A DNA stretch of 64,000 bases, from positions 1-64,000 of the forward strand of contig CAJNYD010000503.1 of NCBI GenBank assembly GCA_905331295.1, in the 5' to 3' direction. A model generated the notes under the pieces. It did no database searches and was not told the DNA's origin. It was given only the letters and a program-made list of their open reading frames with translations. Both the position numbers and the translations under genes were made by a program. This DNA is from Rotaria socialis (taxonomy: Eukaryota). How positions within the stretch are numbered: the stretch's first letter is position 1; every line of letters begins with the position of its first letter. Positions 2,116 to 56,085 of the stretch are shown here, piece after piece.

Positions 2116-5100
2116 TCAAAATCTGTCCGATGTAATTGATGATTTTATTTCATTACTTTTTTGTTCCACTTTCCACTGTTGAATTTCTACTAATGGTCGA
2201 GCACAATTATCTCTTTTGTCAGCTACTGGAAATTTTAAATTTGTTAATTTTTGTAATCTTAAAATTCGTACTGCTTCGAACATTTCTTTATTTTTACAAA
2301 TTTCAATAGTTGAGTATGAATGTAAATCACTTAAAATTGCCTGTAATTTAAATAGTTGTTTTGCTTTATTTGTGCAACCACACCAAGGAAAAGAACTCCA
2401 GAATTTGCTATCAATATATTCATGTAATGATTGAATTAATAAATACAACCAATTATTCTTGTCTGTACTATGTTTATTTGCCGTATTACTTTCTTTTTTA
2501 ATTACACTAGCGATTTCATTCATTAATTGATCTGTTGACTGAAATTCGACACTTTCTCGATCGTATTCACGCTCAATAATCGACATAACAAGACCAACTA
2601 GAATTTGATTGAAATTATAGCTATTTGAATAATTTGTGAATATACAATTCGCTAATTCGCATTTTTCACTGATTATCAAATGAGATTTTTCGAATCCTCG
2701 GTAAAATAAAATGGCACATAACAATCTACCGAATTGTGAAGTCAAATATATTTTTGTTTGGACAGTCCTTTGACTTTGAGCTTCATTATATACTTCATCA
2801 ACTACAATCTTACAGTCGTGAGAATGTAGTACAATTTCATCGTGTTGTTCTGTATTTACTTCATCCTGTAATATGAAAGGTACATGAGATTTGGTTAACC
2901 GAGGATCATCACAAGTGACCATAATTACTCGATTACCGATTTGAGAATCTAAAGTAGATTTATATACATATTTATTACCATAAACAACATTCATAAAATG
3001 TGTGGAATCTTCATTTATTGTATTGTCATATACTACTTGATATAAAAATCTATGATCTTCTTGTTTTTCATAATTTGTTCTAATTTTATTAGCTTTCGCA
3101 TTCAATTCCATGGTATGTGGCCTTCTAAATCCAATGCCCGACCAACGATGATTAGTCGCTTCAGATTTAGTTTGTTGCTTTTCATCAATAAATTGTAAAT
3201 TATCGTAATCGAATAAAGTGAAATCCAATTCATCCGGGTGTCCACTACCGATACAAATAAAACCAGCTTTATTAGAGGACTTCATATGTTGTAAAAATAA
3301 ATCAGATTTAATTTTACGAAATGTTGATTCAGGATTTGAATAAATAAAGATTATTAAATCTGCTGTATTCAACCATTTTATTTCTGGATGATGAAATGCA
3401 CCATATCGTTTGATATCCCATATTTGATTTGAATAGTTAAATAACTTAAATAGATTCTGATATGCAAGAAACTCCGCTCGCTTAAATTTAGAATTTGTAA
3501 CAAGAAGTACATCAGTATGAATATTTGGTGTAAATATTGGTACAACTTCAGTGGTATTTCTACGTTTTTCAATTTGTGTGTCACGTAACAGTAAATCAAT
3601 ATCCCAAAATAAACTTTTATAGTAATGATTAACACTTTTGTCGTGTAAAGTAATTTTAAATTTAATAAGTTCTGTTGACTTAGGTGAGATTTCTTTATTA
3701 ATTTTATAATAAGTTCGTCCATCAGGCATTATTTGGTAACCATATTTTTCATTCATGGGCAAAAATTTAATTAAAGAATGAGTGGAGAATATAAATTCTA
3801 CTGGACCAGCTGAATCTTGACATACACCATACGATCGTGTAGAAATATTAGCAAATTTTACTGTCACAACGGCTTGCTCATTTGGCGCTAGGTGAGTTGG
3901 AATTTCAATATTTTCTATTTGAATTGGATATTGACAGGTTAACATAGTTGAAACTTCACTACCGTTGAATGAACGATTTAGTAGATTAATTTGTGATGTT
4001 ATTTTTACGGATTGAATGAACGGTTGATTAATTGAAAGAGCCGATGTAGCATTGATATGACATTTAAATCGATGAGAATCGAGTAAAACTTGATTAATAT
4101 TAGCACCTGTCAATACACTAACATCTTTTATATCAGTGGAAATATATTCTGTAGATGGAAATGATAATAAAGATCCACTAGGTAAGGTCATTGCTCCGTT
4201 ATTTGCCCATTTAACATCTGTAATATGAAAATCTGAGTCGGGCTCGTAGATTCCATCATTGTTTTGGTCAGTAATAGTATAACAAATGACACTAGCATGA
4301 TATTTATCAGAACTAGTTTCAATTATGTTACCATCTATATCGATCACAGCGTATTGAATTGAGCCATCCATTGCAGCACGACCATTACGACCATTGGAAC
4401 CACTTATACCTGATGAACCACTACTACCACAGGATCCAGATCTACCATTAGAGCCATTCATACCGCTGCGACCATCTGGTCCACCACTACCGCCAGATCC
4501 ACCGGAACCGCCAGCTCCACCGGAACCGCGAGAACCAAATTGGCCACCGCTGCCACCTTGACCACCTTCACCTTTTGTGCCTGCCCGGCAATCCAACTCA
4601 ATTAACATGAATAATCGAGAATCTCTACTGCGAACTTGAACATGACCACCGGCGCCTGCATTTCCTCCATTCCCACCGGATCCACCGTTACCGCCGTTAC
4701 CTCCATCCCCTCCGTTACCTCCAGGTCCACCATCACTTCCGTCGGCACCATTAATACCTTCCATCCAAGTACTGGATCCACATGGGCCATTATAACCATG
4801 ACCACCAGATCCTCCATCCCCTCCTCTTCCTCCGTTACCTCCTCGCCCTCCATCTCCTCCGTTGCCACCTACAGCCTTCACAAGAATGATCCCCTTCGAT
4901 TTAGCCAATCGAAAATCATAATTGACATCGTCATGCAGTTGAGCGAAATTCCAGTCAATATCAGTGGAATCCTTCGATGGATTATTTGAGTTATGAAATG
5001 TTGCCAGTTGCAAGTTCAAGTTTTCAATCGTTCCTTTTAACCAAATCAGTGCATGTTGAGCATCCGTACCAGATTGACCTGAATGACCATCAAACCCATT

Positions 5101-5337
5101 ACTACCATTACCGCCTGTACTACCACAACCACTCGTCGCATCACGGTACCCAATAATCCCAGGTGAACCACTAGTACCAGGAATCCCAGATGAACCACTA
5201 GTACCAGAACAACCATCTGAGCCTGACTTGCCGCTAATAGAAATTACATGATCCACAGGTTTCACTAAAGATCTTGTACTAACGTTATAAACATCGAAAG
5301 GAAAAATTGGTAATTCAACCTCTGTTACTATACTCAT
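2116..5337 (-). CDS. Intronless 1073-aa protein with an N-terminal Gly-rich (GGNGGDGG, collagen/PGRS-like) region and uncharacterised globular C-terminal domains
   Basis: Long uninterrupted ORF from ATG; G-x-x-G repeats over roughly aa 35-325. Confidence 0.85.
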
Positions 5338-5704
5338 TATACTACGTTGATTAAAATGAAGAAAATCGTGTGTTATTTGACTGTTATCGAATAGAGAATA
5401 TATCTTCAGCTACTGCTATGTGTCTTGTAAAAAACAAATCAGTCTTCTTATCATTATGAATGAATACATGTGAATCAAGTGGCCACGTTAATTTTTCGTT
5501 TTTATGCTCATACGTCATTCTACATGCGCCTGTTTTTTATCTTGCCTATTATCATCGATAAGAACTTAAAAGGGTCTCATCATAAATAAAATAAAATGTT
5601 TTATGAAATTCACTCTTTTCGAGGAAACTGATTTCGCTCTCTGAAAAAAGAAGTACTATTTTCGGGAATTTGCTCGCTTTCTGAAGAATTTTACGATAGA
5701 TATA

Positions 5705-6007
5705 CAGTATAACCTCTCTATAGTGGACACCCAAGGGCCCTTTTCAAAGTGTCCACTTTTGGGAGGTTTTTTTGGTTTTTTTTTACTTCGAAGTCATTTT
5801 TTAGTTACCAAAGTGTATGATCGACAGTCTCTTTATCAATGACACTTTGCAAAGAAGTGCGTGTTCAAGATAGTTTCTATCATAATTTATTAAAAACTAA
5901 TTAAACTTCGTCATTTTTTTTCGAAATAGTCAGTAATACAACTTTCTTAGGGCACTGTCCAGTCAAGATAAACGTCAGTCACCTTCGACTCGATTTCGCT
6001 GATGAGT
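5705..6007 (+). mobile_element. Left end of a pogo/Tc1-like DNA element, truncated
   Basis: ta|cagtataacctctctatagtggacac followed by a subterminal palindrome (gtggacac...gtgtccac); no matching right end seen before the junction at 6008. Confidence 0.45.
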
Positions 6008-6058
6008 ACGGGTGTGGATGTGGCTGAGGTTGAAGCGATTATCAACACTCACACCCGT
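6008..6058. repeat. Inverted telomere-like junction
   Basis: acgggtgtggatgtgg...actcacacccgt. Confidence 0.8.
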
Positions 6059-6672
6059 TAATTCTCTAAGAATTAGAATTTCTTTTTGGAATTATGCATG
6101 AAAAACAATCAGCAATAATTCTGTATCCTACTGGCAAAGTGTACTCAGGATATTGAACATTTTTTCGATATTTTGTCAAGTTATGCGTCTGTACAACAGA
6201 TATGGTTGACTCCTGTGGGTCTGGACCATTAGGACTAGGATCAGAAAATTGTTCAATATATTTAATCGATAACCAATGAATTTTAAAAAATTGAGTGCAC
6301 GAAAATTGGTAACTTCACATAGTTCAAAAGATGGAATGTTCTAACTCAGTTTGCTTTTATGCTCAACTATAAACAGATTTCATAGATTAAGTTTGAATAT
6401 AATGACAGAAGAAATTTTTATAGAGAGTAAGCCACCCATAGAAACAAAACACTAAAAATTTACAATAAAATAATGTTGAAAACAAATAAAAGCTCGAATT
6501 CATGGATTGGAATGAACAATTTTTTGAATTTCTTTGTATGATTTCAGTGAAAAGTATCTATGCCTGTTCTTACATTACATTTTCTACTTAAAAGACTTCA
6601 ATTGAAAATCTACATTCGATAATTTTTCTCAAATAACAAAAACTGTAAATTCGCAAAACAAAATCTAAATAC

Positions 6673-7355
6673 CAAGAAGAAACAGCAACCAGTTGATCAT
6701 TTGTACTAAATTCACAATATGATAAAGGACGATTATCACTCAATTAACTGCAATGTAATGTTGTGGTCTAGAAAAGATAATTAGAAAAAAAATAGACGAA
6801 CAAGAAAAATTTACTCGTAAATTCACGATATAAACCTTGAATGTTAGCTGTTCGATATACTTCAGGTATAGCAACATATTCTTTTAATTTTTCAATACGT
6901 TCTTTTGCTCTAGAATATAATTTAAAATAATATTTCTATGCAAATATAGATCTTTTACCTTGACAAGGAATATTCTGCAATCCAATATCGTACTGTTTGT
7001 AATTCATCAGGACCGTCATGATACCAAGCTACTCTGTTAAAAAAATTAAAAACAAAAAAGCCAATAAAAAATTTAAATAAATTATTTTTTTGCTTTTATT
7101 TGTCTTGTATCTTCAACTTTTTCATTGTCTTCTTCATTTTTACGTAATATCTTTGGAATTTCATTATCAGATAAAGATGATATTAGGTTTTGAAGACGTT
7201 TACGTCGTTCGGCTGGACGTTCTCCAAATAAACCTAAATGAAACCAAGAAATAATAACATTACTGTAAAAACCGTATCAATTTTTTCTTGCAGATAGGTT
7301 GTTCTAGTTGACGTAACGTTGCTTGGATTTTAATATTATCAGTTGTGGCGTTCAT
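6673..7355 (-). pseudogene. PRPF4: U4/U6 snRNP protein Prp4 N-terminal fragment (5 exons) with an in-frame stop; WD40 repeats lost
   Basis: Spliced translation LRQLEQPI/CLFGERPAERRKRLQNL...AWYHDGPDELQTVRYWIAEYSLSRAKERIE...LHCS*LSDNRPLSYCEFS matches the Prp4 N-terminus; TAA at 6744-6746 falls at the conserved Gln. Confidence 0.85.
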
Positions 7356-7544
7356 TTTTCGATGCTTGTCACTATAAAACATAGTTTTATTACAAAAAAT
7401 AATCTAATAGAGAAAAACAGAAACAGCAACTGACTGTAACAAAAAAACGAATAACGTAGGTCGCAAACAGACTAGGCAATTTATATTGATACGTGCTGCG
7501 TAAGCCAGTCGGAGATCGTGTCGATAATATACGCTAACGACGAG

Positions 7545-7738
7545 TAGGGGAGTCACATTTTAATTTTAATTTAAAATAAATGCAATTTTTTTAATGAAAA
7601 GTTAAAGCTAGTCACTCTTCTACGAATTGTGCTATTAAATATATATTTATGGGTATCCCGATATTTTGAAGAAGAAAGATGGCCGATCCTGCATAATTTG
7701 TAGAGAAATTTTGATTATTATGAACAAATGTTAACCTT
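7545..7738 (+). mobile_element. Truncated copy of the hAT MITE at 44047-44631
   Basis: Starts taggggagtca; 7608-7738 aligns with about 44252-44380; breaks off at the G-rich tract at 7739. Confidence 0.75.
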
Positions 7739-7790
7739 GGGGGTGGGATGTGTGTGTGTAAATGAAGAGAAGATCGATACCCACACACTC
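7739..7790. repeat. Inverted telomere-like junction (degenerate)
   Basis: gggggtgggatgtgtgtgtg...acccacacactc. Confidence 0.65.
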
Positions 7791-9284
7791 AACTAACGAG
7801 AGAACCTTTCTAGATCATAAAATCCTTTTGAAATAGGACACTTCATTAGATAGCTCCTATCAAGGCCAGACAAAGTCTAGAATGATTCATGCTCACGATA
7901 GTCATTTTATTGGTTAAGATAATCTACACATAACACAATATTGTGCGCAACTTATCCCAGAGCATGCGAGTCAATGGAATTGCATTTCTTTCTTTATTCT
8001 TATCTCTTCAGAAATTCTTTTACTTTGACGTATATTGAAAAAATGTTCATAACCACATATATGTTAGTTGAAGTACAATATATTTTTTTAAATATCAAAT
8101 TTCCCCCATGAAAATATAGTAAATGCTGAAGTTAAACTCATGCAGATATATTATTTTCAATCTATATTATAGATTGAAAATAATAAAACTACTAAAAATA
8201 AATAAATCTGTCTTTCAAATCGAATTAATATTCCTTGATTTGCATTCATTTCTAGAGAAATCTGTGTACTCTCAAAGAAAATTTCTTTCTTACTCAAGTT
8301 TTGGATTATTTTTCGGTGATACAATGAATTTTTCTGACTGACTCATTCCTTGTTTCAATTTGGATTTTATCTTGCAAATAAATTTAAAGAAAAATTTCCA
8401 GGCAAGATGGTTAAGTATTAGTTGGCTAAGAAGCTAATTTTCAAAATACAGAAGCAACAAAATCAATTATCTCATCGTGTAACTACGTGATATAAAATGC
8501 TTGTTGTATAAGTTTGTTCCAAGAAAATTTCATAGAAAAAATAATTTACACTTACGTTAGTGATATATACAAAACTCAAGTCCTTATTAAAAATCTCCTG
8601 ATAGTCATTAATCTGTTGGGTTTGAAGATTTAGAACTTTTAGTTACGAATCTTCTGGAAATATCCACGGATAAAAAACGAAACTTTTTCTGATGATGCAA
8701 AGTGAGGTTTTCAATACATCTAGTAGCTATTTAGCAAATGTATATCACTAGCATCATTTTTTTCTAACCAGAGAACATAACCAAGTGTCGAATAGAACTA
8801 AGAAAATCTTAAAAGGCTTTTGGTCAAGAATATCAATACTTTCAGTGCCGAGATAAAATATATATTTCAAAAGATGCAAGTGTTAACTTAATAGTAGTAC
8901 GTAATAAAATTGTTGCTTATATCCAATGATCAATTTGTCCTAGTAGCACGTCTAAATAAAACTCAAGGAATTTAATCTTATCTGACTTTAAGAAACCTTC
9001 TAGACGACAATGTAAGGATGCAGTATTCCTTATAGGATTCATTTAAAAGAATCTATGGATATTTCTAGAAATGATTTATGTCTTTAAGCAATCATAAATG
9101 CTGTATGAATATCTTAATTACAGAAATTATAATAGGAAAATATCTTTAATAGATTATTGTTTTCGTTCGACACAGAATAATAATAAAAATACCAAAAAGT
9201 TGCCTGTTAGTAAATTTAGTAAAATCGATATATTATTTCGATAACTGTTTATAAATTACATTGAGAAAAATAATACGAATTTTT

Positions 9285-9900
9285 TTAACTTTTGAAAACC
9301 CGCACGACACTCGTGATGGGACATCGGCATATAGGACAGTCAGATAATTGTTTACCACAACGAATACACGTACATAGATGACCACAATTAAGAACGACAC
9401 AATCAATATTTGCATCCAAACAAACTTTGCATAGATTTTCGTTGGGGTCTTCTTTAGAGACTTAAATAACAAAATCAACCACAAATGATGTAGAAAAAAA
9501 CAAAAATTATTTTACTTTTTGCATTTGATTCTTTTTTTTGTTTTTCATCACGATAAAGTAATTTAACTTTACTAGTTAATTCTGATTTTTCAACACATCC
9601 AGCAATCGATACATAACTATGTACAAGAATTTGTTGTAATTGTTGAGTTGTTAAGTCATCTATTGATTCTAATGTTGATATATCATTGAGAGTCATGCAA
9701 GCATAATTTAATTTTGGTGAAGCATCTTCAATTGGAGCTATCGGTTCTGAATGTTCACTTACACATGATGAGTTGATATTTGACGATGGTGTCTAAAAGC
9801 AAATCGTAAAAGAAACTAAATAAAAGGATAAGACATGAATCATTCATATCAAAATTTTACGGACTGAACAATCATCATACTATTGTTGAGATACATCTTG
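9285..9900 (-). pseudogene. RNF34: 3' fragment of an RNF34/RFFL (CARP-family) RING E3 ligase; N-terminal FYVE-like part missing
   Basis: Exon 9518-9792 has LTTQQLQQIL...GCVEKSELTSKV; last exon has C3HC4 RING LCKVCLDANIDCVVLNCGHLCTCIRCGKQLSDCPICR...VRVFKS*; upstream exon is cut at 9900. Confidence 0.75.
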
Positions 9901-9972
9901 AGGGTGTGGGTGCGAGGGTAGAAGTCATTTCATAACACTCTCACTCCACGTCCACGTCCACGCCCACACCCT
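9901..9972. repeat. Inverted telomere-like junction
   Basis: (cttg)agggtgtgggtgcgaggg...ccacgtccacgtccacgcccacaccct. Confidence 0.9.
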
Positions 9973-10453
9973 ATCTTTCTGTAAATCAAGACTTGCAGAA
10001 CAATACGTCTAGTTCCAGAATGGCTTCATCAAATGCAATGAAAGTCTCATAATATATAGCCAGAGTAAGTCGACCCCTGACTCATAAAGTATTTCTATTG
10101 CATAGTTATGAGTTTTGCAATAGTGACAGCCAGCATGTATTATTAGTGTTCTGTGGCTAATTCAATAGAGGCGAGAGTTTTGTTTCTGACCTATACTGAG
10201 CGAAAGCTATGCAACCTACATGTTTTTAGAGTCATACCTATTAGGGAAGCTGAAATCCGAGCAGCAGTGGCAGAATTCTGCTGTTCAATAGAACGCCATA
10301 AACTATTCATTGATGTTGCTATTCCTTTTTCTCAGCTTCAATTTTTCTCGTATTTCTACCAAATTTATTCTGCACAGATTCTTGGAACAGGTTTCTAAAA
10401 TTATTCGTGCTACCATGCACTGCAAAAAATTTCTCCGCTAAAAGTCTCACTTT

Positions 10454-10512
10454 CCCAGTCAGACAAGTTTTGAAAAAAAAACGGTGTTTTTTTCAACGCT
10501 TGTCTGACTGGG
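10454..10512. repeat. Short hairpin (mini-MITE-like)
   Basis: cccagtcagacaag...cttgtctgactggg, a perfect 14-bp outer inverted repeat with internal A/T arms. Confidence 0.7.
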
Positions 10513-13500
10513 TTAGGAGTAAGCTCAGCATGGTTTTAAAATTATGAGAGATGGTTGCTTAAATTTTTTCTCGCTCACTAGTTGTTTTACTTTTTCTACT
10601 TCCTACAATTTTCATCAGCATCCATTGTCGCGTTGAGAAGATAGGTTTTTGAGGGAGGAGGACCGGGTTTCCCGTTAATTTACATAAAATAGATCTCGTT
10701 TTCCCTAAACTCAGTTCAATTTGAAACTTTTGAACATTCGGTCGGTTAGGTTAGCAAAAATGCCAACCGATCCCATCTCTGTTCCCCACCAGTCGTATAC
10801 TTCACTAGTTATATATTGTTGCAAAGAGATTTCTGTCTTTTTGGAAAATGATATTGCCCCAAATTCAAATTCCTCAACATATGTACTTATAAACTATCGC
10901 ATGATTGCCAGTATTTATCATTAAGATTTTAGATAAAATGAAAGATTTCTACATTCTATTTATTCTTACGTTGGATAATGTTGATTTATTTGAAACATTA
11001 CTCGAACGTTTTGCTCGCCTAAATCGTTCCAAATTATAACGTGCAAAATATAATTTATAACATTCAAAACCTTTTTTGATATAAAATATAGAAAAAGAAA
11101 CAAATAATATATTCTAAACATTTGATTTGTAATTGGTACCTTTAGGTGATAAATTTGTTAGATCAAGTTTTGATACACGTTTTTCAAATAAAGCTAATTG
11201 TGAGTCTCGATTAAAATCTTCTACACATGTTATAAACCAATTTAAGCCAAGTTCACGACCAAATGAACTTGCATTTTCATTTGTGATTAATGTATCCCAT
11301 AATTCTTCACTACGTTTTAATATTAAATAAAGATTTCCTTTTTTTAATAAAAATGATAATAAATCTAAATGAGTTTTAATTGATTCTTGATGTGTAAAAC
11401 GCCCATCAACTAATGTATCAATCGTTACATGTCCATGTGTTTTATTCCAAACATCTAATTGACATGTTGATAAACTTCGAATTAATGCTGATATAACATC
11501 ATGCTTATGAACTAATAGTGATATTAAATCTGGTTCTGAACGTTTAAATGTATTTGTTGGATTATGAAGTAATAATTCATATAAATGTTTTAACGCTGAT
11601 ACAAGCCAACCTTGATTACGTTGTAAATCAGTCATACATTTAAGACAATAATCACGTTTAAGTTCATCATAAGATGAGCGACCCTCACTAAATACACGCA
11701 AATGACAATATAGAAGATGATCAAGCATTGAACGATGAAGTCGATCTTCATGTGCCATATCCCAAAGCACTTCTAAAACACGAGCAGCAGAATCTTCTTG
11801 ACATCCTCGACCGATAGCACCAAGTAATTCAATAAGCTTTTCTTTTATAGGAATGGTTTCAGTTTTCCATGACTGTATAAATAATATTCAATTATATATG
11901 TGGGCAACAACAAAAATTATTTATATTACGTTATCAATGAAACCAATTAGACAGTTGAGTTGTTCTAGATTAAATTTCGTTGCGGCAGATGCAATCAGAC
12001 TCAATAAATGATCCACTGTGGCTAATGATCGACCATGCTGAAAAAAACCCAAACACTAAATACGCTGTTCTTGCTGCGTACTCAAAAGAAAAAGAGTACA
12101 CTATAGAATCGGCCAGTGTGTCCGCCCGTCCGGCCGTTTACACGATAACTCTTCACAATTACATTCGATTGAGCTGAAATTTTGTGCACAGAATTGTCTC
12201 ATCAATATCTAGGTCGAGTTCGAAGATGAGAAGAATCCGTCAAGAAATGACTGAGTTATCGAAAAAATTGCCATTTTTGATCAGACCATCCTTGAGGGGG
12301 AGTACAGGGATTTATCAAAAAAACTTTTTTTTTCCAGAATTATCCACAACATATATAAATCGACTCAGTTTTTAACGCTGATTCTGAATCTGATATTAGT
12401 TTTGAACTAAATCGTAGCTTTCTAACGAAACATCGCCTGAAAAGCGTCTCAAAATGCACAAAAACTGCATCCAGAAATCAAGCTGCCTAGTTTCTCATGA
12501 TAATTTTGGCGTTCAGACATTCTAGAATGACTCATATGTCCCATGCACTTTTTGCAGTACACATAACTCTCGGATGAAATCTGAAGTTTTCACATTTATT
12601 TATTTTAAAGTCTAGTAGAATCGGTAGACTCGAAAAAAGTTATCCATTGAAATTATGAACAGCTGAATTAATTTGTAGCTTAGTTTCTTTTCTTGATTAC
12701 GTTGTAACTCATTCGCATCACCCGGTGAGTCACAAGAGTATTGTCGTGTGTTCTATCGAGTTTTTGATCAATTTCTTCACGATCCCTTTATTTGATCTCC
12801 TTCAAAATATTAATTAAAACTTACTTAATATATTATAACGAGACAATATTTCTATACGATCATACATCAATAGCATATCTTCTGACTTAAATGAATAATT
12901 CGTTGCTAATTTGCCAACTAAGTGTGATTTGGAGGAGGTCAGAAATTCTACATTTATACTTTAACAGTTATTTTAGATTGCGTTTCACAAATGAAAGATT
13001 GCGATTCAACAGGAAAAATAAATTTTCAGTATGTACAAATCTGATACGAATATAAAAAGGGAACAACATTAGAAGTTATTTTACTGTTGACACCTAGAAT
13101 CTGATCAGAAAACTATATATATCGTACTTTCGATAAGCCATTTAACCCATTGAGTAGGAGCTAGCCTACAGTGATAGCATAAATCAGCCGAATCAAAGCA
13201 CGATTTAGGATTTAAATAATGTAAAATATTTATTATCCGTTCGAACTCTGAGAAGACTCTTATAACGTTTGGGCAAAATTATTTTCTCATCAACATCAAA
13301 CTTTTAACAGAGTATAATGTTTGTGCAAAGTGTCTATTGCTCAAGAGACCTTTTTTTATATGCAGACTTGCAAAAGTTGCAAGATAGAGCAGATTAATTG
13401 AAGTGAAAACTGTGACACTGGTATTCTTAAAGAATTTCGTTATTCATTAGTCTCAATAAATATCAGTTTTCATTTTAAGTGATAATTTTTCTCGGAATAT

Positions 13501-14089
13501 ATCAAGAAGGAAACGACGTACTCTCGCATTATTGGAGTCCAGAAAGTACAAGAGGCACACGAAGTTTAATATAAAACGTGTTTAACTCAATTAAAAATGG
13601 CATATTCTCATATTTTCTGGATAGCTGTAGCTCCTGAACTCCGACAGCACATTGGGAATGCGAAGATACATCGTTCCGATTTGTACTCTCTGTAGCGCAG
13701 ATCATGCTCACATATGTTGCATTCGGTAAGAATTCGATTCCCTTTAGTTTAATGCTTGGAGAGTATTATGACGTTAAACTCTAGTTGCCATTTGTAACGG
13801 TATTACGAGATCAATGGTCATATTTCGTATTAAGTAGTATTTACAATTTCTAAATTACCAATTCATCGTTCTTTAAACTAGTAAATAATTAAGTCTCTGC
13901 AAACCTTATTAAATTTAATTACATTCTTCTGGTAAAACTGGTAAAATTTAAAAAAGTTGTTAGCGCAATCCCTTTGGGATTAAAAGTGTGAAACACGATG
14001 AAACTTCTTTTCTGGAATTCGTCCATTACTATCACTGGTGGTCTGTGGAGCTTCTCTATTACAGTCTGTATTATGATGTATGGAGTCTC

Positions 14090-14233
14090 TAGAAACCATC
14101 ACAGACCGTGACAGAGGGACTTCAGAAACCATCACAGACCGTGACAGAGACCTCAGAAACTATCGCAGACCGGGACAGAGAAATGAATTAATTAATCAGC
14201 TAACTAATTAATTAATTTCTCTGTCCCTGTCTG
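14090..14233. repeat. About 3 tandem ~31-33 bp units running into a hairpin next to the assembly gap
   Basis: agaaaccatcacagaccgtgacagag repeated; cagaccgggacagagaaat...atttctctgtccctgtctg inverted repeat. Confidence 0.7.
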
Positions 14234-14239
14234 TGGGGG

Positions 14240-14249
14240 NNNNNNNNNN
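14240..14249. other. Assembly gap (10 N) within a USP24 intron
   Basis: N run flanked by a G run and a C run. Confidence 0.95.
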
Positions 14250-16506
14250 CCCCCCCCAAGTTGCTACCCTATATACTTCAACACTCCTTTCAGATCGTGT
14301 TCCACAAAATATTACCGAACTAATAAGTAACTTGAACCTATAGCTACCTCAAATCTAATATAATGAGTGTGAGATTCGCATGTATTCTTTTCAGACATCA
14401 ATCATTTTTGTTTGCTTCTTTTGACTTGTCCTATTTTCTGCTGTCTAATTTCCAACAAAAGATAAGTAAATCTTCATTCATGCACGAGAGAAGAGTACAG
14501 ATTAAAAATCTTATTCAACTAACTTGTTGAATATTTCAAGGAGAAAAAGATATAAATAATATTGAAAAATATATACCTGCATTTTCCATATCATTTCAAT
14601 ATCTTCTTTTAACATGCTTGGTGCGATGAAATCCACGAATGTTCGAGCTTTTTCTACATATTGAATTTGATCAATATCTCCTATTCAAATAAAATAAAAG
14701 ATAAATAAAATAAAAATTTTATTTCTACCTTCTAATACTTTCGAGAGAATAGAATGTTCAATGATCCATTTACTAACAATATCACGTGGAATTGATGTAG
14801 GATTTTCAATTATTTTTGAAAGCTGCCAAAAAGAAACAATTAAAATAAATATTTCAATCATAAAATTTATTTTACTCCTTTTAATGAATTCATTTTAGCA
14901 TTAAAATCTGATAGATTAACCATTTTAAGTAATATATTTAAATGTAGTTCTTCCATTTGCGCAACGCGGTTTTCCCACACAACAGAAGATATTTTACGTA
15001 AAGTTGTAAGTAATTCAAATATTGAACTTGCTGACTAAACAGTTTACATAAAGATAATTTTATTCAGAGGAAGAAAGTAATAAAATCTAACAAACTTCTG
15101 TTTTATAATCTTCTTCTTTACAATTTTTAACGTAATTTAAAGCTTCTTCAACATGTTCACTAAATAATTGTTGATATTTGTCTATGAATAGATAATCCAT
15201 ACATTGAACAAAAGGTGAAAGCAATGCATTGTATTCCTATATTTATCAAATAATTAGCAAAGAAAATTTAGAAAGAAACGAGAGATTTGAATTCTTACAA
15301 GAGCTGTCAATGGTTTTTCACTTTTAAATTGTCTTTTTAAATTTTGTATTCCATCTTTTAAAACAAAACGGTTTATTATTTCACGCAACCAACCATATTG
15401 TTCATTTTCATTAGAATCAGAAAATGTTGACGATGATGACTTAGCCAATAAACGTTCACCCAATTGTTCATCATAATGTGAACCGTTATATGATCGGTTT
15501 TTATTTTTTTGTTGAAAAACTGAATCATGATCAAAGAGTATAGCTAAAGTTTCAAGTAATTGTGTTGGTACTGGAGAGTAAGCAAGACGAGCAGCTATCA
15601 GATCAACTAATAATTGCATCATATCAAAGATACCTAATTGAACCATAGTTGACCAAGTATTAACAGGATCAGAGCATTGTAACTAAAATATCACACTATA
15701 TAAACCAATAAAAAACAAAATCGATTTTTCATACTTTTTGAAAAGCAGCTGGAATTAATATTTCCATAAATTTTTTGCAATGCTCATCTTGATCAGCGAT
15801 TCCTAAAATTTTAAAATTACAAAAAAATTAACTAACTATTAGTTTAACCATCAACTGCAAGTCTCGTAGCAGATAAAAGGCAACGACCAAGGTTTTCTTC
15901 ACCTAAATATGCGCAAACGAAACATTTAGTCGTAAGAACATTTATTCGTATTAAATTTACGTTTAATAGGAATCGACCATTTGTCTCGATAGACGCTGTT
16001 CTCAAGATCCAGAAAAGCACTTGTTGTAAATGAAGCCGAAGTTTCCATCGGTAATTCATTCGACGATGTATTGGAAGTTTTGTCTAAGGTGATCTTTAGA
16101 GAGAAAAGAAAAGCGGTTTAAATTAAAATCGAATTCTTAATTTTACGTTTTGTTGTTGTTCTATTTGGTCTTCAGTAAGTGAACCAGTAAATATTGATGT
16201 TGGTCTTTGCTCGTTGAAAGTAACAAAGTCGTCATTAAAAAAGATTGGCCCCGTCAGAAAAGTAATAGCTTCAACAATATCATTTTCAGCTTGAGTTAAA
16301 GCCTGGCGATTTAATTCTCGATCGATAAAACCCATATTTTCTAAAATTCCCATATTTTCTTCCATATTTGGTAAATTAGTTGCTGTTGATGATGCAGTTA
16401 ATAATATAATTATAAAAAGGAAACGTTCTAAAGAAATACAACCTGAATTTAATCTCTACCGAGCAACACAATTTTTACTATCTTTATCAATGTGAGAACC
16501 ATCCGA

Positions 16507-16550
16507 AGGGTGTAGGTATCAGAGAAAAATGGCCACCTACACTCATACAC
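16507..16550. repeat. Inverted telomere-like junction (degenerate)
   Basis: agggtgtaggt...acctacactcatacac. Confidence 0.65.
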
Positions 16551-17016
16551 AAGCTCACTGACACTTATCCACACGTCATCGAGTTCATAGGAAACTCGAA
16601 TTTGCCGCAAAATTATTTTCCAGAAAAAGAAGCATCTTAGCCACAAAATATAACTTACGAGATATAATCTGGCATGAGGCTGCATAAATCTTGATGCCAC
16701 TTATACCTCGCATAAATACTGTGGAGAAAATGATTTTGCTGCAAGTTCAAATTTGTCAAATTACGGCTTCACCCAGGTTAGCATTATTGTTACAATCACA
16801 ATCCCACAGACGTGATCCTCCTCGCAAAAATATAATACTGGAGAAAGCCAAAATAATGTCACTGTCTTCATTGGTTCTTATCAAAATGTAAGTTGAAAGG
16901 AAGTCAGAGAGCTTCGTTGGTGTGGGTCGAAAGGTTTTGTTTTTGCAGAACGCCAAGCACATTTTGCCTCAATGACTGTTCCTTATTCTGCAACGAGAGA
17001 TATTGTATTAGACGTC

Positions 17017-24541: not shown

Positions 24542-27500
24542 TCAGAACAATATTTTAATACGACGCTTGACAGGTTCAAAATCTGATGAATTCGATACAT
24601 TTTCGATTAAATTTATTAGATCATTATAATATTCATTGTTCTGTTTTAGATTAAGCCAAAATTTGTAAAATCCAGCAACTCTTTCTAGAAGAGGTAAATG
24701 TTTCAATAACTTGAATTCATTTGCAATTTTATAATCCTTCATATACATTACAACGTTTAATGCACATTGTAGATCAAAAGTTCTTTCGTAATTATAGTTA
24801 ATATAATCTGTTGTGGCGGTTAATTCTTGTAAATAGGATTTCAAAAATTGTAGACCACCAAATGAAACAACACCTGCAATTTCTAATTCTATTGTATTTT
24901 CATTATCTTCAAGTGTTGTAGCAAAACCAAAATCGATCAATTTTAAATGATTACATGTTTTATTGACCATCAAGTTTTCTGGACGTATATCTCGATGAAT
25001 GATACGACATTTATGTAAATATTCAATGATGCTAATAAGTTGTTCTGCCTGAGGTACTTTTATTGATTTTAAAGGTTTCAAAAAATTTTCAAATAATATA
25101 AATTTACCTAGAAAGAAAAACAAAAACTATTATGAACCAGAATAAATATTATTTGAATGATGCTAAAAAAAATATCGGACAAAAAACAAAATATTTCTTA
25201 TTATTTTAATAAATAAGAGTTTAATTTAAATTAGATGACTTCTTTTGATTATTTAATGATTTAACACGATTCATAATTTAGACTAGAGTTTTTCTTTTGA
25301 AACTTCAAAATTGTTTTGTTTAATAACAATTAGAAAATTTTATCTTAGAATTATTTTCATTTTTAAAATAAAAAAGAAACATCTTTCAAGATATAATTAA
25401 TAATAATCGAAGAGCATTCTAATAAACTTTTAATAATAAACGTTTTCTAATTTTCATTGATTTATTTTCGATTAATCTATAGATTTGAATTATTATAAAT
25501 TTTCATTTAATATAAATTAAGAATTTTTCTATGTTAAACAATTGATTATTGTCATGATAGAATGATATTAAATATTAATTCTTATTGATTTAACTTTATA
25601 TTTAAATTCATTTACTTAACATATAAACTAAATAAAACTAATCAATCAGCTATTATCTAACTTATTATTATTTTTCTTTTTCAACAGGTTTATATAAATA
25701 TATATATCGATTTTCTGAATTGATGCTTTTATTAGAATAAATCTGATAAATTTCATTTAATTCAAGTTTAATACATTAAACAAAACAATCTTTTATTTCA
25801 ATCTAAATTTCTCCAAATGCTTAAAAAATATTCGAGAAAATCTTTGTTCATTAATTTATACTAGGATTTTTCTATTACTTATTGAAAATTTCTAATGAAT
25901 TACTTGATCTACATTCATAAATAAAATTAAAATATTCTCTACTCTTAAAAAACAAAGAATCATTTCATTCATTTGAAGAATAAATAAATTCAACATGTTT
26001 TCTTCTTTTTAATCTAATTTAACCTTCAACAACTTATGCATATAAATACTATTATGAAGAAAAAAGATAAATTTTATTCATTAAATTAGAATTTCAATAA
26101 GAGTCCTTTCATTTGGAATTTTATAGCTGTTTATATATAAATAACTCTAAACTTCTGTAGTTTCTTTTTTCTCTTAATTATTTGTGTTCATAAAAATCTT
26201 TAAAAAAACTCGAATATTAGAAAATGTCGTTGTCAATTATTTTTAAAATTTAGATCGTTTTTTCTTCAAATTCATTTTCTACGGAACCAATAAAAAGAAA
26301 AAACATATTCCACGTTAGATTTTGTTCTTAAAAAAAATAATCTTTTGATTATTCATTTATTCTATATGTACTTGTTTTTCTTTTATTCTAACTCTCATTC
26401 AAATAAATTCTATTCAAATCTCTCTTTCATTGTAGTTCTCAAAATTCTTCCAAAAATCAATCGAAATGTTTTCTATTCTCTATTTTTAGTAGATTCTCAA
26501 TTCATTGAATAAATTCTAAACACCAATCAATTTTTCAGCAGAAAAATGTTACCTTCAAGTGATGCTTCTTCGATATTTGAAAAAAATAATTTCAAGTTAT
26601 TTGTATCATTCAAATTTTTTAATTCTAGGAATATATTAATTTCATTCATAAACATGTCGCAATAGTCTTCACTTTTGCAAATTTTCATTACACGAGATTG
26701 TCGATCACTAAGTGATTCATTATAGTTGTTATGAACCAATAGGTAAACCATTGAAGTAAGACCGCATCCTAATCTTGTTCTTATATAATATTGATCGCCA
26801 AATAAATTATCACCGGGATTTATGTTTAACATGTTATATTCATAAAAACCAGCATTCATGGTTAAAAATTTAATCAATATTTTCATTGTATCGTTATTAA
26901 GATGTCTTCGTCTTAATTGTTCGTTTGATATTTGTTTATTAACAGCTGATGACGAGGAGGAAGACGATGTTGATTTCGATGGCATATAAAACATTTCTAA
27001 TTTATCACTTTGGTAAAAATTATAATTACAGGAAGACGAATTTCGTTCTTTTACAACATAGTAAAATCTTATATGTTGAAGATTCGTTATAAAGCCATAG
27101 ATTTTTTGACGATTTTGTAGTTTTAATACATCAGTCAAATAACTGCACAATTGTCCGATGTGTTTGAATGCATCAATAGATTCATTTGATGACTTTACTT
27201 CACCAAGACAAACCACAAAATCTTGTAAAGATCCATATTCATCACGAATATTAATATTAATATTTTTATATGTAAAAGTACAATCAGGACTTTTATTTTG
27301 CATGAGATATTTATGATGAGTTGTATTCAGATATTTTAATGATGATAAATTTTTAAATTTATCATTTTTGTCAAATAATTTATGTATTGAATCCTCCAAT
27401 ACAACTTGCATATTGTTTTCTAATATAATTCTATCTAAAACCGATGAATAAAAACACTCTTCAAAAATGTTGATCATATCATCGTTAATATTATCGTTAT

Positions 27501-27954
27501 CATTTAATAACGATTCAATATCGAATCGATATAAATCTTTTTTTACAATCGAATTGTAATAAGACGCATTATCTAATGCTGAAGAATGATTTTGACTAGA
27601 GGTTGACGTTTGTTGTTCGTCTTGTGACTTCAGTCGTTTTTGTGCGTCATTTTCTTCAACGTGTTCTCGTTTTTCTCTTTCAAGTTCCAATCGTTTTGTT
27701 TCTTCTTTTTGTCTTTCCAATTTGATCTCTTCTGTTTTATGTCTTGCTTCTTCTGCTTGATGATTTTGTACTGTGATAAATGCATCTATTTCTTTTTGTT
27801 GAAATTTTAATTCTTTTGCTTTACGATTTTGTTCTGCGATAAATGCATCTATTATTTTTTGTTGCAGTCGTGCTTCTTCTGTTTTATATTTTTCTTCTTG
27901 GAGTTGTATCAGTAGTGGTAATAAATCTTTTGGAATATTAAACTGTTGATTCAT
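24542..27954 (-). CDS. ~655-aa protein: coiled coil + PD-(D/E)xK-like nuclease fold + Ser/Thr kinase (Crinkler/FunK1-like); exons 27954-26553 and 25107-24542
   Basis: KSPDCTF...CLGEVK; kinase motifs LGCGLTSMVY, VMKI, HRDIRPENLM, LIDFGFA; a phase-1 GT-AG intron joins the two ORFs in frame. Confidence 0.8.
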
Positions 27955-28520
27955 TAATCTTCTAATCGAGTAGTCGTGATTCGAAGTTTATCTATAACAA
28001 ACGAAAAAGTTTCCTATGATAGAAATATCAAAATTATTATGAATATCGATAAGAACTCGATTTATATATTTTTTTAGAAATAAAAACATCATTGTGTAAC
28101 ATATACCTTCGATGCAGAAAATACGAAAGAGGGCGCCCGATGATGGTTATAATATATAATCAATATTTTTTTATAGAATAGATCTGAAATCGAAGCTGGA
28201 ATATTATCATTTTAAAAATTCGTAGTATTATCTCGATTCTTTTTTTCGCAAAATACTCGAGATTTAATTGATTACATTATCCATCTATTTTATTATACTT
28301 GGAAAGTTTTTATTGGAGTATGATGTCAAGATGAAACGACAGATTAATTCCTAGATATTATCGAAATGAATACAAGAGAAGAAAGATTGTTTTTTCTATT
28401 TTAAACTTTGAGCGTGTCTTCAAATAGAACATATGTTTGCCTATTCGATTTTATAGTAACGAACAGAGAAAAACATTATACCTCAATTATATTAATCCAA
28501 AGTGGATTTAAAGTTAACTA

Positions 28521-29366
28521 TCGGGTGGCCCGTGTTAAATGTTCCTATCAGTGGTTTTTGAATAACTTCATCATTTTTATTCTCTAGACCTTAGTTATTC
28601 AATTCTCTACAAGATCGAAATCAAAAATTTTCCTGTGGAAAAGATTATTCAACAGGTACAACAGCATCAACTTTCAAAGCGACTTTTAAAACAAACTTTT
28701 GCCAATTTTTTACAATGGCACACAAAACGAACAGAAGCAAAGATGTTACTGAGTACTTTGAAGTGTACTCTTTCTCGTCGTGTAGCTCAGAACTCGTTGA
28801 AATCAAACGAAAGATCGAAAAATCTGACTTTTCGAAAATTCTCTTCAAAATAGCTTAAATTAGATATTTGGCGTTAGATGAATTGAAGAAAAAAATGAAG
28901 ACTCAAATTTTGCGTCCGACTTTGGTAAATTAGGCCATTTCGATCAAAATGAAAAAAACGAATGCAAAAATGATATTTTGGCTTAATTACGCTTCTTTTC
29001 CTAAAAGTATCGAAATTGCAGATTAAAAGAGCTGAATTCTGGCAACTCTGAAAGATGAGATACTTAGAGCGCGCATTAAAAGGGTCGGTGTGGAAACTCC
29101 TCAAATATGATCGGAAGATAGAGCTTGTTGAGTGCTGCAAAATACCTGCATTATTTAATTTTTATCGTCGCTGAGCAACGAAAAACTCTACAAAAACTAT
29201 TTTCCAGCTTTGAGAGTTGATGCTGTTATACCTGTTGAATAATCTTTTCCACAGGAAAATTTTTGATTTCGATCTTGTAGAGAATTGAATAACTAAGGTC
29301 TAGAGAATAAAAATGATGAAGTTATTCAAAAAACACTGATAGGGACACTTTACCTGGGTCACCCGA
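28521..29366. mobile_element. Tc1/mariner-type MITE with ~160-bp TIRs and a TA target duplication
   Basis: ta|tcgggtggcc...ggtcacccga|ta; 28521-28680 is the near reverse complement of 29207-29366. Confidence 0.85.
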
Positions 29367-30715
29367 TACTATAATGACTATAACGCTCTCATCAGAGGCC
29401 AATGCAATATTCATTCACTTCCATTCGCCATTTGTTATATGAATAAATATTCTAGTAAATTTCATGAAGGTTTATTCTTAACGGTTCATAAACTATGTAT
29501 GCAAACTCTACTCCATTCATTCGAGTATGATTTCTTGTTACTCGAATCTCCCAAACTTTTACAGTAAAAAATCGAAGGATAATAATTATGATCGGTATTC
29601 TAGGCTTTGTCATTTTTCTTTTACTACTCTTTTTGTTTTACATGCTAAATGAACTATTTAATTAAAAATCCGTTTCTATATAGTATAATGTATTATTCTA
29701 TTACTCGATTATTATTGTCGTATATCTTGCTCTTTAGTCGCCACTTATTACGGAGATACATTGATCGACAAATCATGCTCTTGTAAGTCTGTAATATATC
29801 GAACATTATTGATAGTGGATGAATTTTTAGAAATATTGCTTGTAAACAATAGTAGCACGTCAATATTATCAAACAACCATAAGTTATGTAAAATGTGAGA
29901 TGGCAGCAATGAATAAGAATCATAACCCTTTATAAAAATAAAAAGTCGTGGTGAGTCGGTATTGAAAGTGAATTCTGATGAATTTAAAATAAAAAGTTAA
30001 TCTTAACGCTGAAAACTTTTATGGAATTATACTGAATTTCTATCGATATTCAACTGAATTATGGTCTGTGTTATGTCCATTATATCTAGATCTACATACG
30101 CCTATAGTGATATGGTTTAACATGATGTTCGTTGGGAAATAAAATATGTGTAATTTTATCTGTAAAACATCTATAAAACACTATAGACTACTGATCACTT
30201 TCACACGGATCATGCATATAATACATCATTATTCATGTGCACGCGAACTAATTGGTTGCCAGGCATATTGACAGGGAAAACTGGTGATAACTCAGTAATA
30301 GATATCGATCGCGATCAACCATAGGTAAATGAAAATAATAATATTTACTCGATTGAATGTCATGTTGTACAATAAGAAGAGAAAAATACATGAACTCATA
30401 AATCCAAGCAACCTGACAACTTGAATACGCTGTTATTTCAACGAATTATTCGATTAATACTCTTTTAAAAGTAGCGTTAATTCGGTTGCGATAAAGAATT
30501 TTTGATGATGTAACCGTCGGTGGTTACATTTGGGTGTTGATGTTTGAGACAGAGTGCAAAAAGGAAATGAAATTAGAAACAGTACTTTCAGTCATCACAA
30601 CCGGGAAAATATTTCGAAGTTCCCTGAAAAATGAAATATATCTGACAGTATTTATTCTAGGAAACAGGTCTATATAAATTTATCAAGAGTTCTATAATAA
30701 AAGAATTTTGTTTTT

Positions 30716-38026: not shown

Positions 38027-39770
38027 ATGAGTGATACACCGAAAAAGAAACGAATTGAAGAAAGCGAACAGGTTGTTGATGAAAAATACGAATATATTAC
38101 AAAACTACCTGATGGAGGTTATGGTTGAGTAATTGCTATTACTGCGATGGTATTTTATTTTTTAAATTTATTATCATTAATATTTATTTTATTTTATTTT
38201 GCTCATCGACTTAGCTTTGTAATCTTGTTTGTGATGGGACATTGTTTACTTTCGATAGCATGAAATTTAATTTACAAAAACATTTTGGATGTTCTGACAT
38301 GATTATTCTTCTCGCGGTATCTGCTCCTTGTGGCATTTATTTATTAGTTGGTATGTTTAATTTCGTCTTTTTACGAAAACTAAAACAGTTATTTTTTTTT
38401 TGTAAAGGTCCAATTGTATCAGTTCTCTCTAAGAGATATAGTTTTCGACTAACAATTATAATTGGAAGCATTGGTTCAGCTGCTTGTACATTTATATTAA
38501 CTATGTCAAGAAATCTTATGGAATTCATAATTATTCATGGAATAATTGGCAGTGTGTTTTTTTGCATGGTTTATCTTTCGTTCGTAGAATTATTTAAAAA
38601 AGAATGTATCCATAATTTTCTTTTTTTCTCGATAAATCTAGATCAATAGTAGTGATTTCATTTTATTTTGACAAAAAACGAGCTATTGTCAATGGTATAT
38701 GATCAGTTAGTCAATGCTGTGTTTAGATTTGTGTATTGCTTGTTTTAGGATTCGTTATGGCTGGCGGAAACATTGGTGCTTTAATATTTTATCCATGGTC
38801 TAAGTATGTGATGGAAACGTTTGGTTGGCAACGTGCTTTACTTACACTTGCTTTTATCATGCTGACATGTATTTTATTCGGAACAATAATGAAACCATTA
38901 AAACCAGAGCGAGTACCAATACAGCGAACGGGTGTAAAATCATTGTAAGTATCTAATCATTTTGTTTATTTATTGTATAATATTACATATAAGGATATCA
39001 TAAAAACAAAACCGGATCTTACAACAGCATCGTCAACTGATGATGCGAATATGGTAAACTTGAAATATATTAATATTTGCAAAAATAAAGTTTATATTTT
39101 CATAGCCATCATCGTTCTACAATCATGCAATGAATACGAATGATCAAATTAATGCTCCTGATGTTTCAAATTTAATTGTAACATCTTCACATGGTGGTAC
39201 TAACACAATATCACCATCACGTCGACCATCATCGAATGCAAATGTTTCTCATCTCTTTGGAGTTCCCGATGCAGAAAATGCATGTCGTCCATTAGATAAA
39301 AAAGATGTACTATTCACTGGCTCAAAACAACAATTTCATACATCACAAAGCAACACGTATGCACCATCGATGATAAATTTTTCAATATTGAAAAATTGGC
39401 AGATGCTACTAATTTATATCGGAAATGTTTTTTCTATGGTTGGATATGGTTTATCAATCGTGAATCTTGTTTTACTTGCAGTTTATGGTCATGGGTTAGA
39501 TATAAGAAGTGCATTACGTTTAAGAAACGTATTTGGTAAATGCAAAAGAAACATAACAACACGATGAGGAACTAAATTATAATCTATTTTTCTTTTTTTA
39601 GAATTTTTCTATACATTAGGCCTACTTTCAGGAGGATTTATGACTATGATACCTCATCTCAGTGCTTTACGCGTTCATAATACATTTTTATTCATTGCTG
39701 GTATTGTAACCGTTTTAGCTGCTTATGCAAATAACTTCATAACTCTTGCGCTCTATGCTGGTGTATTTGG
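38027..39770 (+). pseudogene. Monocarboxylate transporter (SLC16/MCT, MFS) with a nonsense mutation and 3' truncation
   Basis: PDGGYG* (TGA 38126-38128 replaces the conserved Trp); YFDKKRAIVNG, FGWQRALL; coding sequence runs into (GGGTGT)n after YAGVFG, so the final TM helices are missing. Confidence 0.85.
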
Positions 39771-39823
39771 GTGTGGGTGTGGGTGTGCTTGTAGTTATTT
39801 CTATTATGAGCACCCACACTCTC
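39769..39823. repeat. Inverted telomere-like junction
   Basis: gggtgtgggtgtgggtgtgct...agcacccacactctc. Confidence 0.9.
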
Positions 39824-44046: not shown

Positions 44047-44631
44047 TAGGGGTGTCATATTTAAATTTTAAAAAATTTATTAAATCGGGAAATAAATTTT
44101 CAAAAATTTAAACTTAAAATAAATTTAAATTAAATTGTTTGAAATTCAAATTAGTTAAATTTTGAAAACTAGCAGATAAAAATAGTTTTTGACTTGATTT
44201 CTACTATTTAAAGTCAAATTTGAGTATGTTTCCTGTTTTCTAAAGTTAAAACTAGTCATTCTTCTATGAATTGTGCTGTTAAATATATTTTTATGAGTAT
44301 CCCAGTATTCTGAAGAAGAAAGATGACGGATCCTGCATAATCTGTAGAGAAATTTTGACTATTATGAATAAATATTAACCTAAAATACTAGATTTTCCTC
44401 TCATTTAGTATTTATTACTGTTAAAGTCACGTATTTCTCTCGTAGCAATGATGTGTATCCATCCAAACAATTTATTAAATTTAAAATTTAAATTTAAAAG
44501 AATTTATTAAATCGAGAAATAAATTTTCAAAAATTTTATTTAAATTTAACTTCATAGAATTTAATTTTAAATTAAATTAACTTTTCACGAAGTTAAGTTT
44601 AAATTAAATAAACTGTAAATTGACACCCCTA
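44047..44631. mobile_element. hAT-type MITE with 11-bp TIRs and an 8-bp TSD
   Basis: atgcgcac|taggggtgtca...tgacaccccta|atgcgcac. Confidence 0.9.
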
Positions 44632-53656: not shown

Positions 53657-53812
53657 AACGGTAATATGATAGCATAAGAATCATTGAAATAAACTGGTGC
53701 ATAGTCTGTCTCATATGACTCAATCCGGAAGCATTTCGATACGATGGTTACGATATGTGTAAAACTGCATAAAAACGACGTGAAGACAATCTGCAATCAG
53801 CTACTATTTATA

Positions 53813-54799: not shown

Positions 54800-54811
54800 T
54801 AGTATTCCATG

Positions 54812-55640: not shown

Positions 55641-56085
55641 TAAATGGCAGTTTATGAATCGCTGTAAAAACGCTGTATTTCAATCGTTTATTACTATTTA
55701 TAAGTCATTCCATCCCATCTAAATAAATGCTTCTTTTATTGTATAAGACTCCACCAGATTACACTCAAGAATTTTTAAATATTTGTTTTTTGCGTTTTAT
55801 ATGCCACACTATCCGTGCGCATCGTAAAAGGTACGTAAACGAATATTTTTATTTGAAAAACTTAATCTGAAGACTTTTTCTTTTTCTCCCATACACTTAA
55901 TTATTCAGGTAAATACTTTTTTTTTATCTTGTCCTTCATACTACGTCAATAATTTTAGCAAGAATCAGTTATATTTGTCAGTGTCGTCGTCGTTTTTCTT
56001 ATCAAATTCGTTCTGATCCGCAAAAAAAGTGTTATTCATTTCGCTAAATTCATTTCGTGTGACGTCGATTTATTGTCTGCATATC

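Follow-up and report, generated by a model that had tools for sequence, protein, structure and literature searches.

A transcribed USP24–RNF34 chimera in four Rotaria species, a predicted RING ubiquitin ligase probably joined at telomere-repeat-capped breaks

Exon shuffling can combine pieces of two parental genes into a chimera that is spliced in frame and retained by selection; examples are jingwei and TRIMCyp, the latter joining a RING to a foreign recognition domain. Here we describe a gene of this kind from the bdelloid rotifer Rotaria socialis, in which the 5′ part of a USP24 gene is spliced to the 3′ part of an RNF34 gene. It lies in a 64,000-nucleotide stretch of DNA (positions 1 to 64,000 of contig CAJNYD010000503.1, assembly GCA_905331295.1), referred to below as the window. 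The chimera differs from TRIMCyp and jingwei in that both donors keep their introns (no retrocopy), in that one donor erases the mark that the other writes, and in the telomere-like hairpins present at the joint. With USP24/USP9X-type deubiquitinases it shares a UBA-like start and an ARM_UBP24_USP9X-Y repeat, but it is missing their UCH domain and carries a RING instead. With the RNF34/RFFL (CARP) E3 ligases it shares the RNF34L helical domain and the C-terminal IAP-like C3HC4 RING, the USP24 scaffold taking the place of FYVE and SAP. To our knowledge, the combination of an eraser's scaffold with a writer's catalytic part is a design better known from engineering than from nature, and a literature search returned no description of a USP24-RNF34 chimera.

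The DNA around the gene recalls three described phenomena. In the interstitial telomeric sequences of vertebrates known as TERC-ITS, short internal telomeric repeats follow a few fixed non-repeat bases, namely those adjoining the telomerase RNA template (PMC2246262, PMC8537989); in our case, there are always two head-to-head arms around a spacer of 6-30 nt. The Athena elements and Terminons of bdelloids also combine telomeric stretches at junctions with trapped host genes that keep their introns (PMC6431247, PMC5537684). Here, by contrast, the arms run head to head rather than head to tail, the window has no Rfam match to a hammerhead ribozyme at the gathering score (divergent ones may be missed), and no reverse transcriptase was found in the 23 open reading frames (ORFs) scanned of the 118 listed. 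Capture by Helitrons or Pack-MULEs likewise yields intron-bearing pieces of several genes in one orientation (PMC6431247), whereas our hairpins show no excess of CTRR, no target-site duplication and no long terminal inverted repeat (TIR).

The initial annotation of this region had proposed three unrelated fragments, of PRPF4, RNF34 and USP24. Three intron-containing partial genes do lie side by side there, all on the minus strand (Table 1), and two of the losses were correctly named: the RING ligase consists of the two last RNF34 exons only, without FYVE or SAP, and the USP24 part lacks its catalytic UCH domain. Two of the three pieces belong together, however, the USP24-derived 5′ part and the RNF34-derived 3′ part forming one reading frame of 916 codons in 14 exons, free of stops. 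The splice donor (10969) and acceptor (9793) share phase 0, and the USP24-RNF34 splice is thus in frame. Contigs from two of four presumed RNA runs, belonging to two studies, omit exactly 9793-10969, with GT-AG ends. An X9 contig crosses the 9792/10970 joint with 101 nt on its short side and 6 differences in 235 nt, and an X13 contig crosses it with 99 nt on its short side. Three neighbouring introns are also omitted by X13 contigs, and the joint 9460/9516 is likewise spliced. Although the RNA status of the runs is a guess, the exact loss of introns identifies these contigs as spliced molecules; the evidence is made up of contigs over the individual joints rather than one molecule across the full length. 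The RING and its stop codon are read through by contigs of X13 (9139-9457) and X10 (9204-9460), and the 3′ untranslated region (UTR) reaches at least 9139. Contigs of X15, a run with the same species label as the DNA runs, cover almost none of the chimera exons, which we count as no evidence. The USP24 front and RNF34 back are thus one spliced, open and transcribed gene.

Table 1. Features of the chimeric gene and its surroundings, in window coordinates.
Feature	Position	Strand	Details
Hairpin	6010..6056	.	G arm 24, spacer 11, C arm 12
PRPF4 pseudogene piece	6672..7382	-	5 exons (7355-6672), parent residues ~83-239
High-copy 140-bp repeat	7598..7737	.	89% copy at 44242-44381
Hairpin, degenerate, between PRPF4 and RNF34 pieces	7738..7791	.	
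Last exon of chimera	9285..9460	-	Complete C3HC4 RING and stop (Pfam zf-C3HC4_3, 48.5 bits)
RNF34-derived exon, first after fusion	9516..9792	-	Linker and RNF34L-like helical domain (Pfam PF22968, 39.3 bits)
Hybrid intron with USP24/RNF34 breakpoint	9793..10969	-	1,177 nt, GT-AG, phase 0
Hairpin within hybrid intron, candidate fusion scar	9899..9972	.	
USP24-derived part	10970..16365	-	12 exons, 766 codons, open; UBA-like start, ARM repeat
Gene-conversion tract from parental USP24	11240..11440	-	~200 bp, R. socialis only
Intron 9 of chimera	12038..14576	-	2.5 kb, very high-copy repeats and 10-N gap
Remnant of parental USP24 first exon	16366..16488	-	Parent residues 28-67, now with TAG
Hairpin, degenerate	16507..16574	.	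19 bp beyond start of USP24 homology

Within the hybrid intron, neither the next USP24 exon nor an earlier RNF34 exon was detected. The RNF34 piece had been thought to be cut at 9900 by the telomere-like tract; its homology begins instead at the splice acceptor, at 9792, 106 bp from the tract, with no significant exon remnant between. The 40 nt separating the 9899 hairpin from a GT at 9860 were considered as a decayed RNF34 exon and rejected for lack of a significant alignment. Four public R. socialis models (P0012 and P0016-P0018) predict a single protein that strings together USP24, a truncated RING and PRP4. We rejected such triple fusions as likely prediction artefacts because contigs continue past the RING into the stop codon and UTR, and the gene described here corrects these models.

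Full-length chimeras with the same junction are annotated, without a name, in three further species: P0214 in R. magnacalcarata (920 aa), P0031 in R. sordida (943 aa) and P0026 in R. sp. Silwood2 (913 aa). Protein identity to the R. socialis model is 75-87%, and Pfam finds the order ARM-RNF34L-RING in P0031 and P0026. The chimeras form one clade in trees of the USP24 part (support 99/99 and 100/99) and in the tree of the RNF34 part (100/100, for the three species with complete models), with R. socialis paired with R. magnacalcarata and R. sordida with Silwood2. These trees indicate a single origin of the chimera before the four Rotaria species split. A word-index protein search restricted to 451-2000 and 185-2000 aa found no chimera beyond these four, which is weak evidence. 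The exon remnant at the 5′ end sits upstream of the start methionine common to all four chimeras. The chimera has lost the parental USP24 5′ end, so that its promoter may derive from across the joint. The R. socialis and R. magnacalcarata models also take an extra first exon, 16642-16713 on the minus strand, from beyond the 16507 hairpin.

Copies of the intact type exist for both donors. The RNF34 parent in R. socialis, P0061, has the FYVE and SAP domains missing from the chimeras, and the USP24 parents of sister species, P0033 and P0039, continue to a UCH domain; nothing in the window matches P0033 beyond residue 723. The USP24 part of the chimera is 68-75% identical to the Rotaria parents and ends after about 770 residues, while its RNF34 part is 56-62% identical to Rotaria RNF34s. 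The DNA runs used below to check the assembly contain further USP24 loci (two contigs at 90.5%, 9,042 and 4,525 nt long, and one at 85%), and these match the window only at the big USP24 exon. The parts of the chimera therefore derive from two unrelated genes. The proposal that the pieces were duplicated from other loci is supported, as P0061, the 90.5% USP24 contigs and a 1,658-nt PRPF4 contig described below represent intact-type copies. In Silwood2, the USP24 model P0037 begins just past the chimera breakpoint and is 96% identical to the parent P0039. P0037 and P0026 lie on contigs of identical length (4,646,637) with close accession numbers; in that species, a USP24 copy may sit beside the chimera.

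The chimeric frame appears to be under purifying selection. In simulations of random change, only 1 of 300 copies was stop-free at 5% and 0 of 300 at 10%; the real frames are open in all four species. From the X13 differences over two stretches and the residues of P0214, we obtained a rough ratio of replacement to silent change (dN/dS) of ~0.19 (replacement changes, about 10 in 470 sites; silent changes, 15 in 133; Fisher p = 3e-5), which presumes that the X13 allele resembles P0214. Several points weigh against reading the locus as a working chimeric gene: this presumption, and the 25 changes behind the ratio; the faster evolution of the chimeras than their parents in places (RNF34 stem 0.36); the shallowness of the transcript contigs (depth 2.5 and 6.7), from runs that are only presumed RNA; and the UBA-like match, which falls below the Pfam cut-off in the chimeras (E 1e-4 to 5e-4) and above it in P0033.

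In R. socialis, parental USP24 has overwritten about 200 bp of the chimera. Over residues ~672-738, identity of the R. socialis chimera reaches 97% with the parent in R. magnacalcarata, against 72% with its own ortholog. Nineteen consecutive informative residues are of the parental type, a run reached in 0 of 20,000 permutations (longest run 10), and a tree of the tract places the R. socialis chimera among the parents (99/99). In the DNA runs, parent and chimera contigs both stop at 11448, as expected if the two become nearly identical at that point. The tract shows that a paralog has exchanged sequence non-allelically with a parent from which it is 25% diverged.

The hairpins consist of a G-rich TGTGGG arm, a spacer of 10-29 nt and a CCCACA arm, placed head to head. 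TGTGGG is described as the bdelloid telomere unit (PMC8494291, PMC7943196). The window holds 36 telomere-like tracts, against 0-6 in 15 shuffles, and 23 of the 28 strong ones belong to such pairs. There are 16 pairs in the G-then-C order and none in the C-then-G order, with at most one in each of 20 local shuffles. Besides those in Table 1, hairpins lie at 1770, 1906, 17915, 20823, 21327, 22046, 22687, 39768, 41725, 46904, 47258 and 53589, giving about one per 4 kb across the window, always with the G arm first. The same motif was found in AT-rich metagenome contigs: at least 119 loci were collected and 34 kept, leaving out 73 GC-rich loci and 12 of the 46 AT-rich ones (bacterial or plant-like, low complexity, one duplicate); as these loci were chosen for the pattern, no frequency can be drawn from them. 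Only one of those kept (L061) is assigned to Rotifera (Atlas), and four more have DNA repeats in common with the window. In a literature search that left several core bdelloid telomere papers outside its reach, we found no report of head-to-head hairpins of this type.

Across 55 hairpins from the window and the metagenomes, the arms are irregular in both length and unit, ranging from 8 to >100 nt. TCT precedes 16 of the 28 arms that start with TGAGGG (2% background), and CTTCT recurs next to hairpin arms. Three candidate identities were rejected. As Helitron ends, the hairpins are followed by CTRR in 3 of 32 cases, against a 17% background; as TIRs or miniature inverted-repeat transposable elements (MITEs), they lack target-site duplications, none being seen above the null among 53 hairpins; and as local templated inserts, they would have spacers copied from the flanks, and the window spacers are not copied from 2 kb on either side. 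Three metagenome hairpins (L118:179, L064:68 and L042:946) have arms of 55-150 nt built of irregular TGTGGG, TGAGGG and TGGG units and share GAGAAG beside the C arm, which is useful for deducing the telomerase template. In the window, an MFS (major facilitator superfamily)/monocarboxylate-transporter-like gene at 38215-39790 (plus strand) runs into the 39768 hairpin and is seemingly cut there.

The initial annotation had each piece bounded by junctions. Hairpins are indeed found at 6010, 7738, 9899 and 16507, separated from the ends of recognisable homology by between 19 bp and ~1.3 kb, only the one at 16507 being tight. There, USP24 homology starts at 16488, which corresponds to residue 28 of the parent, and residues 1-27 are missing on the far side of the hairpin. 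At the 6010 hairpin, a paralogous 653-nt contig aligns with 6019-6555 at 97% identity; the match breaks off at 6019, leaving the first 116 letters of the contig unaligned. The remaining hairpin-to-homology distances are 350 bp to 1.3 kb, and a post hoc Poisson estimate puts the probability of these four positions at ~1e-4. Telomeric repeats have been reported at experimental deletion breakpoints in Adineta vaga (PMC13564844). The irregular arms, the TCT prefix, the lack of target-site duplications and the uncopied spacers fit telomerase-type synthesis on two ends, followed by their joining. In such a scheme, broken ends would each have gained a few telomerase-type repeats and then been joined nose to nose via a short spacer; the join would have fallen within phase-0 introns of both genes, letting splicing remove the scar, and ectopic conversion would later have refreshed ~200 bp from the parent.

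The retained introns had been taken as a sign of DNA-level capture, an unsafe argument in bdelloids: Penelope elements of A. vaga have copied an intron-containing host gene (PMC3846280), and as bdelloid Penelope elements keep introns, an RNA step is not excluded by their presence. DNA-level joining is still likelier, because of the hairpin joints, the missing target-site duplications and the lack of a hammerhead match or of a reverse transcriptase in the ORFs scanned. We consider it somewhat better than an even bet that the locus holds a transcribed chimera shared by four Rotaria species, likely a RING ligase and likely joined at breaks capped with telomere repeats, next to a broken PRPF4 duplicate. 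A conserved gene with a new domain order, set in a subtelomere-like mosaic that the hairpins mark, would then have been put together from two housekeeping genes of an anciently asexual animal, its likely joining scars still readable. This would link bdelloid DNA-break repair to gene birth, and the hairpins could be scored genome-wide as breakpoints. More tentatively, telomerase-assisted head-to-head end joining might be a route by which bdelloids shuffle intron-bearing gene pieces in subtelomeres, and might in this instance have built an E3 that ubiquitinates USP24 clients, has been retained since the common ancestor of the four Rotaria species and still exchanges sequence with its parent.

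Three observations count against the hairpins as joints. For the 9899 hairpin, RNF34 homology is 106 bp away and USP24 homology ~1 kb, an arm as recognisable as its own could postdate the fusion, and the 3′ end of PRPF4 is ~600 bp from its hairpin. The gene might be as described and the hairpins later, independent insertions, whether of a tiny palindromic element or as repair fill-ins, with the fusion itself due to an ordinary intron-intron rearrangement or to Penelope/Athena-assisted copying that retains introns. Such an origin would suit the frequency of the hairpins, their shared outer motif, which resembles an element end, and the hundreds of bases that separate most of them from the ends of homology; in addition, Penelope is described as moving intron-containing genes (PMC3846280) and Terminons as trapping host genes (PMC6431247). 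It is harder to reconcile with arms that vary from 8 to >100 nt, with the absence of target-site duplications and of an Rfam hammerhead in the window, or with the 19 bp at 16507 and the placement of the four hairpins, and we regard it as unlikely.

Provided that the gene is real, we think it fairly probable, judging from conserved residues, that the chimera is a RING ubiquitin ligase aimed by a USP24 scaffold. All eight zinc ligands, the arginine after the last CxxC and the terminal phenylalanine are conserved in the four chimeras, and the RING is their best-conserved part, with 44-45 of 49 residues shared with the nearest chimera. The ARM_UBP24_USP9X-Y repeat of the USP24 part scores 353-358 bits. 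The nearest solved structures are USP9X (7yxx) for the front and the XIAP/cIAP RINGs for the back. An AlphaFold model of P0214 from a 12-row alignment was not used (predicted local distance difference test score, pLDDT, 45; predicted template modelling score, pTM, 0.27), and the ESM Atlas gave no usable match for P0214. The protein would have given up the eraser (UCH) and the membrane-targeting FYVE and retained the writer (RING); its UBA/ARM scaffold would bind USP24-type partners, which the RING would ubiquitinate rather than deubiquitinate. The scaffold, which makes up five-sixths of the protein and whose likeness to the parent was increased by the conversion tract, could instead act as a decoy or adaptor that competes with USP24 for partners, leaving the RING mainly to dimerisation or self-turnover. 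The RING being the best-kept region, with all its ligands, is what is expected of an active ligase, and a decoy seems to us rather improbable.

The PRPF4 piece has had a different fate. It covers residues ~83-239 of the 514-aa Rotaria PRPF4. The reported loss of the WD40 repeats is true of nearly all of them, and the N-terminal ~82 aa have gone as well; no later WD40 exon was detected down to 5800. The piece has an in-frame TAA at 6744-6746 and is 63-73% identical to intact Rotaria PRPF4, with 55-73% as the range for its clade of partial copies, in a region where intact genes are 88-99% alike across bdelloids. That clade unites it in trees with other partial copies from R. socialis and R. magnacalcarata, and intact PRPF4 falls outside (100/99). 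A spliced X15 contig of 1,658 nt, ~10% diverged and positioned like a full-length mRNA, is likely its parent; no listed contig matched the piece itself, which counts as no evidence. By these alignments it is a decayed, doubly truncated duplicate from a family of decayed copies. The word 'scraps' thus suits PRPF4, with its stop and low identity to the intact gene, but not the USP24 and RNF34 parts. That all three are dead and the splice is transcriptional noise could draw on the low transcript depth; this is largely refuted for USP24 and RNF34 by open chimeras of 913-943 aa in three other species, their proteins ~25% diverged, by a spliced joint in two studies and by the low dN/dS, and it strikes us as very improbable.

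The window consists of AT-rich animal DNA in which introns are short and F-box, NHL and kinase-like genes occur, and its USP24 exons match gene models of Rotaria socialis at 98-100% identity. To check the assembly, contigs of four DNA runs from two studies were placed on 5800-14230; these are four of the eight runs that share at least half of the sequence words, and one may be the source of the window. Misassembly of the short-read scaffold, a concern raised with the initial annotation and suggested by the 10 N at 14240-14249 inside repeats, has a negligible chance of explaining the locus, as it is ruled out for 7210-12107 by overlapping contigs of all four runs, with a single X7 contig bridging 7653-10401, and continuity across the gap rests on the models P0012, P0016 and P0018 from other assemblies, which span it.

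Intron 9 holds two very high-copy MITE-like repeats (12100-12600 and 13950-14233), where summed contig depth is thousands of times that of the flanks. Elsewhere in the window, two intronless genes are possibly foreign: a 1,097-codon ORF at 2116-5409 (minus strand) with Gly-rich collagen-like repeats and DUF7932, and a carboxylesterase at 56017-57939 (plus strand; COesterase, 357 bits). Pieces of a fungal-type kinase with DUF6826 lie at 24542-27987 (minus strand), and long inverted-repeat elements are found at 53811-54801 (arms of 195 and 90 nt, 96-97%) and at 28519-29368 (162 nt, 94%).

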